64,000 nt of DNA from Myxococcaceae bacterium (GTDB lineage: Bacteria; Myxococcota; Myxococcia; Myxococcales; Myxococcaceae), in assembly GCA_044223505.1 (NCBI GenBank), contig JBGALX010000012.1, positions 90,174 to 154,173 of the forward strand, written 5' to 3'. Position 1 is the stretch's first letter; each line of letters opens with the position of its first letter. Shown one piece after another: positions 36,322-39,953 of the stretch. The notes under the pieces were generated by a model. It was not told the origin of the DNA. It ran no database searches and saw nothing but the letters and a program-made list of their open reading frames with translations. The translations under genes and the position numbers were made by a program.

Positions 36322-36687
36322 CTACTTCAGAGCCTCGAGCGCCTTCACGAGCGCGCCGGCGTCGACCGGCTTGCTCAAGAAGCCCCTGGCACGGCAGCGG
36401 CTGACGCGGCTCGCGGCCTCGAGGTTCGCCGAGACGAGGATGCGGGGAATGTCTCTGAGCCGCGGGTCTTCGTCGCACGCCGAGCAGAAGGCCTCGCCGT
36501 CCATCAGGGGCATGTACGCGTCGATGAGAATGGCGCTCGGGCGAACGCCGCGGCGCAGCGACTCGAGCGCCTCGAGGCCGTTGCGCGTCGTCATCGGCCA
36601 GTAGTCGAGATCGGCGAGCAGCTCGGAGACCGCGGCGCGCGTCTCGAGGTCGTCGTCGACGACGAGCACGAGGCCCTTGTCGAGCAT
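36322..36687 (-). CDS. Response regulator receiver protein.
   Basis: LVLVVDDDLETR...LIDAYMPLMDG...SKP. Confidence 0.8.
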   Translation of the reverse strand: MLDKGLVLVVDDDLETRAAVSELLADLDYWPMTTRNGLEALESLRRGVRPSAILIDAYMPLMDGEAFCSACDEDPRLRDIPRILVSANLEAASRVSRCRARGFLSKPVDAGALVKALEALK

Positions 36688-36790
36688 GCGACGGGGGCGA
36701 CTGCGCGGCACTTGTGCTGACGGCACCATGTTCGAACCCGCTCACAGGTTGCGGGATCAACCCTGCGAGCGCAACGGGGCGCTGCCGCAG

Positions 36791-37168
36791 TTACGAGCGG
36801 GTAACGCTCGTCGGGGGGCCCTGCACCGCGAGCTGGTCGACGAAGCGGTCGAACCCGGCGTCGCGAACGTCGAAGTTCACGCCGAACTCGAACGACGAGT
36901 TCCACACCACGGTCGCGGGCACCTTCACCACCTGCGTGCGCGCCTCGGTCCCGGGGATGATCAGCAGGAACGTGTAGGGCGCACCGACCGCCGGAGCCGC
37001 CCGGCTGCTCAGCCGCGCTCCGCCACGCGAGAGGTTGTGAACGTGGTCGAGGCGAGGGGCAGCGCTGACCGCGATGGCCAAGAGCTGCACCGCATAGCGC
37101 TCGAAGCGCCTGGCCGGTGAGAACCCCACGGGCCGCGAGTCTACCCGGGGCCCGGTGACCCAGTTCAA
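36791..37168 (-). CDS. PilZ-domain (c-di-GMP binding) protein.
   Basis: RRFERY (R...R motif) and NLSRGGARL (D.S.GG-type motif) within 125 aa. Confidence 0.75.
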   Translation of the reverse strand: MNWVTGPRVDSRPVGFSPARRFERYAVQLLAIAVSAAPRLDHVHNLSRGGARLSSRAAPAVGAPYTFLLIIPGTEARTQVVKVPATVVWNSSFEFGVNFDVRDAGFDRFVDQLAVQGPPTSVTRS

Positions 37169-37199
37169 GGGCCCGGGGCGTCGTTACTCGGGAGTAACC

Positions 37200-37559
37200 C
37201 TATGGCGCCGAGCAGGCGAGCAGCCTCCGCACGAGCTCGAGCAGGTCGTCGAGCGAGAACGGCTTGTGCAGAATCGCGGCGACCTCGAGCTCCGACGGCA
37301 GCTGGTCGAGCCGCACGGCGGTCATCAGCACCACGGGCGCCGTCGAGCCGAGCTTCTTGAGCTGGTCGATGAGCTCGATGCCGTCCATCAGGGGCATCAT
37401 GTAGTCGCAGATGACGAGGTCGGGCTTCGCCTCGGTCACCCGCTTGAGCGCGTCTCTCCCGTTGCGCGCGGTCGAGACCGCGAGCCCCTCGTCACCGAGC
37501 ACGTCGGTGAGCGCCTCGACGATTCCGAACTCATCGTCGACGATGAGGACACGCTTCAC
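37200..37559 (-). CDS. Response regulator receiver protein.
   Basis: A GTG start (VKRVLIVDDEF...ICDYMMPLMDG...HKPF) overlaps the KaiC-like stop (GTGA). Confidence 0.75.
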   Translation of the reverse strand: MKRVLIVDDEFGIVEALTDVLGDEGLAVSTARNGRDALKRVTEAKPDLVICDYMMPLMDGIELIDQLKKLGSTAPVVLMTAVRLDQLPSELEVAAILHKPFSLDDLLELVRRLLACSAP

Positions 37560-39067
37560 CTCTTCTTCTTGCCTTTCCGTGCGGCCGGCCGGTGAGCGGG
37601 AGTGATGAACACCTCGTCGGGGTCGATGCGGGGGCGCGCGCGGCCCTCGATGATGTCTTCGACGCTGCGGTACGACTCCGAGATGTCGACGCCGCCGTTG
37701 CCGATGCGGAACTCGCGCGTCGCGGGGTGGTAGCCGCTGTCGCGCGTCTTGATGACGCTCATCAGCCGGAACAGCTCGCTGTGCACCTCGGCGAAGCGCA
37801 GCAGAATCGCGTTCTCGGCCATCGTCGACACGCCGGTCACCGGCAGGTCGATGTTCCCGCTCACGACCTGACGCAGCTCGGCCGAGCACAGCGTCGTCAC
37901 GCCCTGCGAGCGCAGCTCGTTCGCGACGGCGCAGAAGAACTGGCTCACGCGCTCGGGGTAGGCCGCCGCCTTCACGAAGCCGTCGAGGCCGTCGATGAAG
38001 AGCCGCTTGATGCCGTGCAGCCGCACGCTGTCGATGAGCTGGTTGCCCAGGCTGTCGAGCGTGCGGTCGGTGGGCGGGTGCCACAGGAAGCGAATGTGCC
38101 CCTTCGCGTGCAGCGTGCCGAGGTCGAGCCCCAGCGAGTGGCCCTTGCTGATGAGCCGCTTCGGCGTCTCGAAGAAGCCGAAGAAGAGCCCGGGCTCGTG
38201 CTGGCTCGAGCCCGAGAGGAACTGCAGGCCCAGCGTCGTCTTGCCGGCGCCCGAGGGCCCTGTGACGAGCGTCGTCGTGCCGCAGACGAGGCCGCCCTCG
38301 AGGATCACGTCGAGCCGCGGAATGTTCGTGGTGATGCGCCGGTCGCCGCACGAGTCTTCTTCGCTCGGGTTGCCGAGCAGAATCTCGATGCGCGGGCTGA
38401 CGCGCACGCCGCTGTCGTCGATCTGAAACGTGTGCGCGCCGCGCAGGTAGCCCGAGCCGCGGAACTTGCGAACCTGCAGCTCGCGCTCGGCGCGGCGCTG
38501 AATCACCACGTCGGTGAGGTCGAGCACGCCGTCGACCATCGTGTGCTCGGGCCGCACCTGGTCGTGGTTGCCGCTCGTCAGCAGAAGCACGGTGCAGTTC
38601 ATGAGGCCCGCGTGAATCTGCAGCGCGTGAATGAAGCGCTTGAACTCGCGGTCGGTGTCGGCCGACTCGGCCGCCGTGACGAGGCCGTCGATGACGAGCA
38701 GCGTGATGTTGCGCTCGCGCGCCTCTTTGCGAACGAGGTCGACGAGCGCCTTGAGGCCGCCCTCTTCGAGCACCGAGAAGCCGCTCAGGTACGCGAGCTT
38801 CTCGGGCACGACCGTCGGGTCGAAGTACTTCAGGCTGCTCAGGTTGAAGATGAGCCGCTCGTGCGACTCGGCGAGCAGCGTCGTGTAGAGCACGCGCCCG
38901 CCCGCGCGCACGTGGTGGAAGGCGACCTGGTTCGTCAGCACCGTCTTGCCCGCGCCCGGCTCGCCCTGAACGATGTACACGCCGCCGCGCAAGAGGCCAC
39001 CGCGCAAGATGGTGTCCAGGCCAGGCACTCCGGTGCTGACGCGCTTCGAGTCCGACTCGTGCCTCAT
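37556..39067 (-). CDS. KaiC-family double RecA-like ATPase (circadian clock protein KaiC homolog).
   Basis: Two KaiC/RecA modules, each with a Walker A motif (IVQGEPGAGKT and LVTGPSGAGKT) and GLD..L.GG signatures. The ATG at 39067 overlaps the upstream HATPase gene stop (ATGA). Confidence 0.85.
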   Translation of the reverse strand: MRHESDSKRVSTGVPGLDTILRGGLLRGGVYIVQGEPGAGKTVLTNQVAFHHVRAGGRVLYTTLLAESHERLIFNLSSLKYFDPTVVPEKLAYLSGFSVLEEGGLKALVDLVRKEARERNITLLVIDGLVTAAESADTDREFKRFIHALQIHAGLMNCTVLLLTSGNHDQVRPEHTMVDGVLDLTDVVIQRRAERELQVRKFRGSGYLRGAHTFQIDDSGVRVSPRIEILLGNPSEEDSCGDRRITTNIPRLDVILEGGLVCGTTTLVTGPSGAGKTTLGLQFLSGSSQHEPGLFFGFFETPKRLISKGHSLGLDLGTLHAKGHIRFLWHPPTDRTLDSLGNQLIDSVRLHGIKRLFIDGLDGFVKAAAYPERVSQFFCAVANELRSQGVTTLCSAELRQVVSGNIDLPVTGVSTMAENAILLRFAEVHSELFRLMSVIKTRDSGYHPATREFRIGNGGVDISESYRSVEDIIEGRARPRIDPDEVFITPAHRPAARKGKKKR

Positions 39068-39615
39068 GTGAGACGACCCTCCCGTGGGAGCACGACGGTG
39101 AACGTCGTGCCCTTGCCGTGCGCGGACTCGCAGCTCACCGTGCCCTCGTGGGCCTCGGCGGTCGCGCGGCTGATGAAGAGGCCCAGCCCGACGCTGCGCC
39201 CGCTGGCGCCCGACTGCGTGCCGCGCACGAACGGTTGAAACAGCCGGCGCAGCGTGTCGGGGGCGATGCCCGGGCCCCGGTCGGTGACCTGCAGCACCAC
39301 GTCGCGCTCGCGGCCCTCGAGCCGCACGACGACCGGCACGTCTTCGGTCGTGTGCTGCAGGTCGACCCAGCGCGCCTGGCGGTTGGCGCGGCGGGCGAGG
39401 CGCTCGGTGCGCTCTTCGCGGCCTTTGCGCGCGCGGTCGAGGTCGCTCTTCATGTCGGCCGCGTGCTCGGGGAACAGCGCCGCGATGTGGCGGCCGATGA
39501 GCGCGAAGCCGAACACGGCCGAGGCGCCCGGGCTGCAGTGGGTGATGACCCCGTCGAAGCCCAGCAGCAGGGTGCACTGCGGCCGCGGCAGCGCGATGTT
39601 GGGAACAGAGCTCAC
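39064..39615 (-). CDS. Histidine-kinase-like ATPase (HATPase_c domain) protein with a degenerate or absent H-box.
   Basis: LQVTDRGPGIAPDTLRRLFQPF...GLGLFISR... gives the ATP-binding G-boxes. No clear HisKA phospho-acceptor motif. Confidence 0.7.
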   Translation of the reverse strand: MSSVPNIALPRPQCTLLLGFDGVITHCSPGASAVFGFALIGRHIAALFPEHAADMKSDLDRARKGREERTERLARRANRQARWVDLQHTTEDVPVVVRLEGRERDVVLQVTDRGPGIAPDTLRRLFQPFVRGTQSGASGRSVGLGLFISRATAEAHEGTVSCESAHGKGTTFTVVLPREGRLT

Positions 39616-39701
39616 GGGCGGGCGCCGCGAAGTATCGCGTCACGCTCACGGAAGTCAGCAGCGGCGTTGGGCCGTTACGGGCCGGTAACCGGCTCGTCGG
39701 G

Positions 39702-39953
39702 CTACGAGTCGTTCACAGCGCCGAAGAAGTAGATCTCAGTGGGGTACGCGTCGTCGGGCAGCTCATCGAGCGCGACCGGCACCGTGAACTGCGCGCTCGT
39801 TCGCGTGAGGTCTCCGAACAGCTCTTCGTCGACGGGCACCTCGTAGGGCCGGGTCTCGCGCGTCGACGTGTCGGCGTCCGACAAGAGCTCGGCAGCGGGC
39901 ACCGCGAGCTCTTCCAGGTTGATCTCGATCTCCACCGAAGGGTGCTCGGCCAT
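39702..39953 (-). CDS. Small acidic hypothetical protein (83 aa).
   Basis: High GC3. A GGGAG Shine-Dalgarno lies 6 nt before the ATG. Asp/Glu-rich. Confidence 0.45.
   Translation of the reverse strand: MAEHPSVEIEINLEELAVPAAELLSDADTSTRETRPYEVPVDEELFGDLTRTSAQFTVPVALDELPDDAYPTEIYFFGAVNDS

Follow-up and report, generated by a model that had tools for sequence, protein, structure and literature searches.

A KaiC-like, histidine kinase and receiver module with a truncated kinase gene and an adjoining PilZ-receiver pair in a Myxococcaceae bacterium

Introduction

What does a KaiC homolog do where neither kaiA nor kaiB accompanies it, and which of the genes around it belong to its system? Homologs of KaiC outside the cyanobacteria are very common and their function is poorly understood; myxobacteria carry 1-7 kaiC homologs per genome and no kaiA, and kaiB is rare among them. 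The question is raised here by a 64,000-nucleotide stretch of DNA from an uncultured Myxococcaceae bacterium (GenBank assembly GCA_044223505.1, contig JBGALX010000012.1, positions 90,174 to 154,173 of the forward strand; hereafter the window, whose own positions are used throughout), in which a gene for a KaiC-like double-domain P-loop ATPase stands in a row of eight genes that encode, in order, a small acidic protein (g1), a protein with a histidine kinase-type ATPase domain (g2), the KaiC-like protein, a receiver (RR1), a PilZ protein, a second receiver (RR2), a GNAT acetyltransferase and a Kelch-repeat putative lipoprotein. A preliminary description, made from the nucleotide sequence, read this row as a KaiC-driven timing or energy-sensing relay that feeds into output dependent on cyclic di-GMP (c-di-GMP), in an arrangement not previously described. 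As set out below, the locus belongs to the widespread module of KaiC-like protein, histidine kinase (HK) and response regulator (RR) of Proteobacteria and Myxococcota and not to a KaiABC clock. The locus as a whole is probably explained as this known module, with its kinase decayed in the present genome and PilZ and RR2 added in a small clade.

Results

Gene calls

Genes were called by third-position GC (GC3) frame analysis together with a listing of open reading frames (ORFs), and domains were assigned with Pfam and NCBIfam. Because the region has a G+C content of about 70%, raw ORF lists are crowded with spurious frames. GC3 picked out eight minus-strand genes (g1, g2 and those for the KaiC-like protein, RR1, PilZ, RR2, GNAT and Kelch), in agreement with the eight same-strand genes of the preliminary description, and every domain named there (HATPase_c, double KaiC, two receivers, PilZ, GNAT and Kelch) was confirmed; the limits it had set coincide exactly with the stop of RR2 (36322) and the start of g1 (39953). 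Its statement that most junctions have 4-nt start/stop overlaps was mistaken, as such overlaps occur at only two of the seven junctions, g2/KaiC (ATGA) and KaiC/RR1 (GTGA), and the remaining gaps are 86, 70, 61, 12 and 10 nt. A promoter and terminator scan of positions 33000-40300 returned 0 promoter-like and 3 terminator-like sites against 2.5 expected and, at the high GC content of this genome, says nothing about where operons end. The nearest relatives of the locus are metagenome-assembled genomes of Myxococcaceae and Archangiaceae; related loci are referred to below by numbers with the prefix L where they have to be told apart.

The KaiC-like protein

The KaiC-like protein (39067..37556, minus strand, as for all eight genes; 503 amino acids, aa) matches the Pfam KaiC (PF06745)/ATPase model in two stretches (E = 2.3e-60). 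Its top matches in the PDB are cyanobacterial KaiC structures (E = 6e-45), to which it is closer than to the Rhodobacter sphaeroides KaiC structures 8db3 and 8dba, which were also matched (E ~5e-32). Residue conservation was assessed in an alignment with 86-87 relatives, and Synechococcus elongatus KaiC numbering was taken from a sequence that is consistent with the PDB-alignment segments. Each half of the protein keeps its Walker A Lys/Thr pair, its Walker B Asp and its arginine finger, and K41/T42, E67, D127 and R203 in the first half and K276/T277, E300, D359 and R442 in the second show little or no variation across 87 relatives. Each catalytic Glu pair retains its second Glu only (A66-E67, with E77 replaced by Ala; F299-E300, with E318 replaced by Phe), and the whole KaiC-like family has A/S-E in the first half and Y/F-E in the second. 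In the HMMER alignment to KaiC structures, GVSTMAEN lies opposite HISTITD, which places S414-T415 (codons at 37823..37828) at the positions of S. elongatus S431-T432. S414 is present in 86/86 relatives, and position 415, a Thr here, varies among them (S in 39, A in 15, T in 12 and G in 12; M occurs too). The residues on which the preliminary description had made its reading of the protein hinge are thus in good part present: a catalytic Glu is conserved in each half, and so is the equivalent of the phospho-Ser. The protein is very probably a competent ATPase, judged from its catalytic residues, and Ser414 is a conserved candidate phospho-Ser.

Other features separate it from circadian KaiC. 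The T426-equivalent is Leu, the B-loop region differs, the protein ends in a basic tail where circadian KaiC has its A-loop, and it falls well below both NCBIfam circadian KaiC cut-offs (TIGR02655, 121.5 vs 546.25 bits; NF006799, 202.1 vs 408 bits). A tblastn search with a KaiB query gave no match in 87 related loci and none in the 64-kb window, where the best E was 0.9, and the absence of kaiA and kaiB given in the preliminary description is borne out. By its residues and motifs, the KaiC-like protein is not a KaiABC clock protein. Direct DNA repeats spaced 696-705 nt apart lie within kaiC (37980-38960; families D6, D8 and D13), near the Walker A/B regions, and are a surviving trace of the CI/CII domain duplication; the repeat search turned up only the ~700-nt-spaced echoes of that duplication.

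The receiver RR1 and the spread of the module

RR1 (37559..37200; 119 aa) is a single-domain receiver (Response_reg E = 1.5e-24) in which D9, E10, D52 (the phospho-acceptor) and K99 are conserved in 100% of 84 orthologs, and it is predicted to be translationally coupled to KaiC via the GTGA overlap. Neighbors were counted in 84 non-redundant related loci, with receivers and kinases counted by tblastn. A receiver gene lies directly downstream of KaiC in 83 of these 84 loci, the sole exception ending at a contig edge. Directly upstream of KaiC, 51 of 79 evaluable loci have a kinase with DHp and CA domains, and since the other 28 have no adjacent kinase, such a kinase is frequent, not universal. 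Past the receiver there is no conserved gene: a Pfam scan of 123 downstream neighbor ORFs, whose neighbor positions are approximate because the GC3-based gene caller skipped some small genes, gave 130 families, the commonest of them in 6 members. By conserved residues and gene order, the functional core of the locus is the KaiC-like protein and its coupled receiver. Conservation of gene order, a check attached to the preliminary description, holds for KaiC-RR1 and does not extend to the rest of the row, as the PilZ-RR2 pair is found in three genomes and GNAT and Kelch are not conserved.

The family of the KaiC-like protein is large, with at least 3,463 proteins at E <= 1e-20 among the candidates scored and at least 589 matching stretches in GTDB species representatives, and it ranges over Myxococcota and Alpha-, Beta- and Gammaproteobacteria. 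The Pseudomonas relatives are 44-46% identical to the window protein and have the order HK-KaiC-RR. Archangium spp. (L005, L008-L013 and L016) have KaiC-RR without a kinase, consistently with an aminotransferase gene upstream and a gene for an NYN/OST-HTH (LOTUS) protein downstream.

Comparison with described Kai systems

A module of HK, KaiC-like protein and single-domain RR has been described and tested in environmental Pseudomonas, with HK-KaiC-RR co-conservation statistics, KaiC-HK and KaiC-RR interactions by two-hybrid and co-immunoprecipitation, growth-phase-dependent phosphorylation of KaiC, and stress phenotypes (Terrettaz et al.; bioRxiv 10.1101/2022.01.26.477890). In P. putida the N-terminal PAS domain of the kinase alone suffices for KaiC binding, and the "group III" phosphosite motif is given as SS, CS or SG (bioRxiv 10.1101/2022.01.26.477890). 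The claim of an undescribed arrangement does not survive this comparison, as the module is published for Pseudomonas and seen in Myxococcota and in Alpha-, Beta- and Gammaproteobacteria; what the window contains is a variant, particular to its lineage, of a module that is both known and widespread.

Shared with the Pseudomonas module (P. putida KT2440 PP_3834-PP_3835 and P. protegens CHA0) are the double-domain KaiC-like ATPase, the PAS kinase gene upstream of it, the receiver-only regulator, the layout as one predicted operon, the absence of kaiA and kaiB, and the Ser at the S431 position. The window locus differs in that its kinase is without H-box and N-box, a PilZ gene and a second receiver gene are appended, no CsrA-family or EPS-sortase neighbor is present, and the host is an uncultured myxobacterium. 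The site pairs of the family (SS, SG and ST) were compared with the "group III" logo, and at this site the Pseudomonas relatives have SS or SG and the window protein ST. A CsrA neighbor was not found beside the fetched Pseudomonas loci, so that no firm "group III" assignment is made.

The cyanobacterial KaiABC system with its SasA/CikA-RpaA output shares with the window protein the KaiC fold, the domain duplication, the Walker A/B motifs, the arginine fingers and the S431/T432-equivalents; here, by contrast, kaiA and kaiB are absent, one Glu per EE pair remains, T426 is replaced by Leu, there is no A-loop, and the receiver regulator has no DNA-binding domain. The KaiBC hourglass and stress systems of Rhodopseudomonas palustris, Rhodobacter sphaeroides and Legionella pneumophila are likewise non-cyanobacterial KaiC timers or stress modules without KaiA, but they depend on KaiB, of which none was found here.

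The truncated kinase gene g2

The gene g2 (39615..39064; 183 aa) had been described as an HATPase_c-only, H-box-less ATPase and proposed as a KaiC-binding output. The HATPase_c match itself stands (E = 9.9e-21), but it covers profile positions 19-110 only; because it begins at position 19, the N-box is missing, and about residues 1-85 are a PAS fragment (PAS_9 E = 4e-5, below cut-off), so that "HATPase_c-only" does not describe the whole protein. No HisKA match was given by Pfam. The product joins the PAS fragment to a C-terminal part of the catalytic domain in which G1 (DRGPGI), F (FQPF) and G2 (GLGLF) are present and the AHGG of orthologs reads AHEG.

Against the 335-351-aa kinases of L003 and L007, g2 aligns in two collinear pieces (17-94 = 1-86; 86-181 = 238-333), with 67% and 37% identity to the L003 kinase, and its N-terminus, MSSVPNIALP, is identical to that of the L007 kinase. 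In the multiple alignment g2 has a single gap, from WVD to LQHT, which takes in the last part of the PAS domain together with the H-box (SHDLRNPL) and the N-box (NLVSNAL). The junction lies at 39355..39360 (codons L86-Q87, context WVD-LQ-HTT); at this place the L007 and L088 orthologs read WVD(V/L)H on the left flank and ALHHTT on the right. As CTGCAC stands at both breakpoints of the orthologs, a microhomology-mediated in-frame deletion is suggested, in which about 165 codons would have been lost, as reconstructed from the orthologs and not from an ancestral sequence. An assembly artefact was considered as the source of the deletion and rejected, as Logan contig L001 matches the window without difference over 11,022 bp, possibly from the same reads.

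By alignment, g2 is an ortholog of the KaiC-associated PAS-HisKA-HATPase kinase and not a distinct component. Among the closest relatives, whose KaiC is about 80% identical, L007 and L088 have a divergent short-chain dehydrogenase gene (adh_short), g1, an intact PAS-HisKA-HATPase kinase of 336-351 aa, KaiC and RR1, in this order, which is the probable ancestral order of the clade, and L003 has an intact kinase-KaiC-RR1 unit elsewhere in its genome. L004 and L002 have lost the kinase altogether; L004, the one sister genome with an assembled upstream region, is also without the short form. Among 5.8 billion proteins the 183-aa form was found in this genome only, in a search that gave g2 and one weak partial match and missed the L003-type kinases, its word index being limiting.

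Constraint on the two fragments was estimated by crude pairwise NG86 ratios of nonsynonymous to synonymous substitution rates (dN/dS), which come from 70-98 codons only, in a genome with extreme codon bias. For the PAS fragment, pairs with g2 gave 0.71-1.09 vs 0.28-0.58 among intact kinases, and for the CA fragment 0.46-0.71 vs 0.31, while the adjacent KaiC changed little (0.27-0.38). Since the deletion took the phospho-His helix, the N-box and the PAS end, g2 is predicted to be unable to autophosphorylate, and by analogy with the Pseudomonas homologs it should not bind Mg-ATP normally. Most likely, g2 is a decaying relic. An in-frame deletion in a GC-rich genome would account for the survival of its ORF, and its translation may be coupled to that of kaiC. 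The output role given to it in the preliminary description is contradicted by its origin as a deleted cognate PAS kinase, by its occurrence in this genome only and by its relaxed constraint.

It could be argued that g2 has been repurposed, as a non-catalytic adaptor or competitor that binds KaiC or as a reading frame whose translation is kept for coupling to kaiC. The ORF is intact, with GC3 of 0.95-0.97 and the ATGA overlap with kaiC kept; the CA fragment is 64-65% identical to its orthologs, about as close as the intact orthologs are to each other (66%); and in P. putida the PAS domain of the kinase binds KaiC on its own. The PAS remnant, however, is the part that evolves faster (42-47% identity to orthologs that are 62% identical to each other, with dN/dS up to ~1) and it has lost its last strands, the folding of a CA fragment without the N-box helix is doubtful, no second genome has the short form, L004 and L002 manage without a kinase gene, and at 70% GC an ORF can stay open long by chance. 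We consider repurposing improbable and retain decay as the reading of g2.

PilZ and the second receiver

The stand-alone PilZ protein is encoded at 37129..36791 (112 aa from a GTG start, as in orthologs; 125 aa in the longest ORF, from 37168) and matches PF07238 with E = 3.4e-9 (37.4 bits vs a cut-off of 22.5). Its RxxxR (RRFER) and (D/N)xSxxG (NLSRGG) motifs are present and are conserved in the L004 and L087 orthologs; with these c-di-GMP-binding motifs intact it is a predicted c-di-GMP receptor. The link to c-di-GMP made in the preliminary description is plausible on account of the intact motifs, and its connection to KaiC is drawn from adjacency within a narrow clade only. An Rfam scan of 33000-41200 found no c-di-GMP riboswitch, with a single sub-threshold chance match. 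RR2 (36729..36322; 135 aa, with a later start that would give 121 aa) is a second single-domain receiver (Response_reg E = 3.1e-16), whose DDD, D (ILIDAYMP), S (LVSAN) and K (SKP) are conserved in three orthologs.

The distribution of the pair is narrow. Five PilZ orthologs were found in the database of 5.8 billion proteins, PilZ was seen among the 123 downstream neighbor ORFs in the window and L004 only, and RR2 orthologs directly follow PilZ in L004 and L087, so that the block KaiC-RR1-PilZ-RR2 recurs in these two loci and the PilZ-receiver pair is confined to three genomes (window, L004 and L087). These are monophyletic in a neighbor-joining tree of KaiC (bootstrap 0.945), and because the three loci form one clade, the pair was presumably gained once. 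The genes that follow RR2 differ in all three. Of the three members of this clade, the window has a deleted kinase, L004 has none, and the L087 locus (GCA_016793725.1) runs into a contig edge upstream of KaiC; the kinase is kept in 3/4 loci of the sister group; in this tiny sample the coincidence of PilZ-RR2 gain with kinase decay or loss is suggestive.

In L003 (4388-4789, minus strand) and L004 (4433-4798, minus strand) an additional receiver gene, in the opposite orientation, immediately precedes the KaiC locus. These receivers are 40-46% similar to RR2, and RR2 is ~38% similar to RR1; a receiver of the RR2 type may recur beside such loci.

M. xanthus has 24 PilZ proteins, among them PixA (PilZ-receiver), PixB (PilZ-PilZ-GNAT) and Pkn1 (kinase-PilZ) (PMC8316039). 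Because these are known, a PilZ gene beside a receiver gene is ordinary for the phylum. Compared by domain description, the pair in the window resembles a split PixA, with a PilZ domain bearing RxxxR and (D/N)xSxxG beside a phosphorylatable receiver; PixA (MXAN_1087) is one polypeptide, whereas the window has two genes, with 61 nt between PilZ and RR2. The GNAT gene that follows RR2 echoes the PilZ-PilZ-GNAT fusion of PixB, but it is not conserved with the block, and neither PixA nor PixB has been reported to adjoin kaiC. Among the papers searched, none was found that links KaiC with PilZ.

A second PilZ protein is encoded within 10 kb of the KaiC block (46742-48415, plus strand), in which a PilZ domain (residues 133-219) is fused to a Ser/Thr protein kinase (263-520), the domain pair of the M. 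xanthus developmental kinase Pkn1.

PilZ and RR2 might form an independent two-gene unit beside KaiC-RR1, their co-occurrence stemming from shared ancestry and not from function. Consistent with this are the restriction to one narrow clade, the wider synteny that L004 shares with the window, gaps of 61-70 nt that leave room for their own promoters, the wealth of PilZ proteins in myxobacteria (24 in M. xanthus, and a PilZ-kinase fusion 9 kb away here), and some 80 other KaiC-RR loci that work without PilZ. The same gaps, with promoter and terminator scans that are uninformative on co-transcription with KaiC-RR1, also count against a PilZ-RR2 branch of the KaiC system. On the other side, the four-gene block has been kept at ~80% protein identity while both flanks changed; it has stayed together through deletion of the upstream kinase and next to three different downstream neighbors; and all four genes have the same strand and order, with no terminator-like site between them. 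Independence of the pair is somewhat unlikely on this evidence, and the chance that the PilZ-RR2 branch is truly coupled to KaiC is roughly even.

If the coincidence with kinase loss is given more weight, PilZ and RR2 could have replaced the PAS kinase as KaiC partners in the window, L004 and L087, so that an energy- or time-dependent phosphorylation state of KaiC would be read out through c-di-GMP or gated by it, with the truncated kinase of the window as a non-catalytic KaiC-binding adaptor. If true, it would be the first case in which a timer of the KaiC family is wired directly to second-messenger signaling. This stronger version is improbable, and addition of PilZ and RR2 to a module with a decaying kinase is preferred.

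The ends of the row

The protein g1 (39953..39702; 83 aa), small and acidic as the preliminary description had it, has an isoelectric point (pI) of 4.05, with 20 D/E vs 3 K/R, and matches no Pfam or NCBIfam family. Its start is 44 nt from the divergent adh_short gene (39998..40822, plus strand; E = 2.7e-38), which forms the upstream edge of the cluster. Orthologs of g1 (74-85% identical) and of adh_short (71-86% identical) hold the same positions in L002, L004 and L007, and L088 has an 81-aa gene in the place of g1; an exhaustive search for g1 returned 9 cluster representatives among 1.84 billion proteins, without functional clue.

The GNAT acetyltransferase gene (36309..35776; Acetyltransf_1 E = 3.2e-6) and the gene for the Kelch-repeat putative lipoprotein (35765..33168; 865 aa; Kelch families E = 2e-23) do not follow RR2 in L004 and L087, which have unrelated genes on the opposite strand in that place; in other respects L004 shares synteny with the window (adh_short, MopE, DUF2330 and MVP-like genes). 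Comparison of these loci indicates that GNAT and Kelch are later same-strand neighbors outside the conserved block.

Along the lines of the preliminary description, the eight genes might form one dedicated operon, in which a KaiC timer or energy sensor has the HATPase protein as a purpose-built output and feeds into PilZ, the acetyltransferase and the Kelch lipoprotein. The eight genes do share a strand and are separated by short gaps, their domains were called correctly, PilZ has both of its motifs, and PixB, as a fusion of PilZ and GNAT, is a precedent for a PilZ-GNAT partnership. Yet g2 is a kinase deletion derivative confined to this genome and under relaxed constraint, the sister genome L004 is without g2, neither of the other two PilZ-bearing loci has GNAT or Kelch, PilZ-RR2 occurs in a single subclade, and only two of seven junctions are overlaps. 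The comparative data largely refute the eight-gene model, which we regard as very improbable, and the reading of the locus as a variant HK-KaiC-RR module is kept.

Wider surroundings

A 730-aa protein with a major-vault-protein (MVP) shoulder (MVP_shoulder E = 4.7e-28) and vault repeats is encoded at 30870-33062 (plus strand) and at 9516-11702 of L004, so that an MVP-like gene is conserved beside the KaiC block there. Parts of a MoxR-vWA-beta-propeller ternary system (bpMoxR, E = 3.8e-85, and bpX5) lie at 50575-52752 (plus strand), and bpMoxR is found near the L004 locus too. The gene at 52868-56518 (minus strand) encodes a multihaem cytochrome of 1,216 aa that combines cytochrome c7/c3 repeats with an MtrC/MtrF-like domain, and that at 48417-49415 (minus strand) a protein with an N-terminal OmpR-type winged helix (Trans_reg_C, 21-93), a C-terminal GAF domain and no receiver, an inverted, receiver-less architecture. 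Two sigma-70 region 4 proteins are encoded within 18960-29555, one (22339-23142) between genes for TPR-containing Ser/Thr kinases (18960-21512 and 23139-26039) and the other (28584-29555) a few genes past the second of these kinases.

Discussion

By analogy with the Pseudomonas proteins, the following mechanism can be proposed. A KaiC-like hexamer would hydrolyze ATP and autophosphorylate Ser414, possibly also Thr415, according to energy state or time under stress; through binding of its partners it would gate phosphotransfer to, or sequester, RR1, which has no output domain. Because the kinase in cis is dead, the phosphodonor would come from kinases encoded elsewhere, acting on both RR1 and RR2, or RR1 would act by direct KaiC binding. 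PilZ and RR2 would probably add a c-di-GMP-sensitive branch via protein-protein contacts. Candidate trans-acting kinases are encoded at 13571-18855, a hybrid histidine kinase (13571-15385, minus strand), preceded by the gene for a FIST-domain protein (15389-17335, minus strand), and a divergent histidine kinase (17353-18855, plus strand); two of the candidate donor kinases thus lie within 25 kb.

Several points weigh against this account, in addition to the intact frame of g2, the identity of its CA fragment, the short codon sample behind the dN/dS values, and the gaps around PilZ and RR2, all given above. The mechanism is carried over entirely from Pseudomonas proteins that are ~45% identical. 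The tentative "group III" assignment has the SS/SG site motif as its single basis. E318 is the proposed general base of KaiC autophosphorylation, and its equivalent is Phe or Tyr throughout the KaiC-like family, so that the autokinase chemistry may differ.

The value of the locus is comparative and hypothesis-generating, and current understanding is not overturned by it. It extends the Pseudomonas-type HK-KaiC-RR module deep into Myxococcota and, through the neighbor counts (83/84 and 28/79), marks the receiver as the near-universal partner of KaiC and the kinase as dispensable. In g2 a kinase appears to have been caught during its loss, which is a warning against taking "HATPase-only" ORFs as new components. 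The three-genome clade with an added c-di-GMP receptor and receiver is a concrete candidate for a link between KaiC-like signaling and c-di-GMP.

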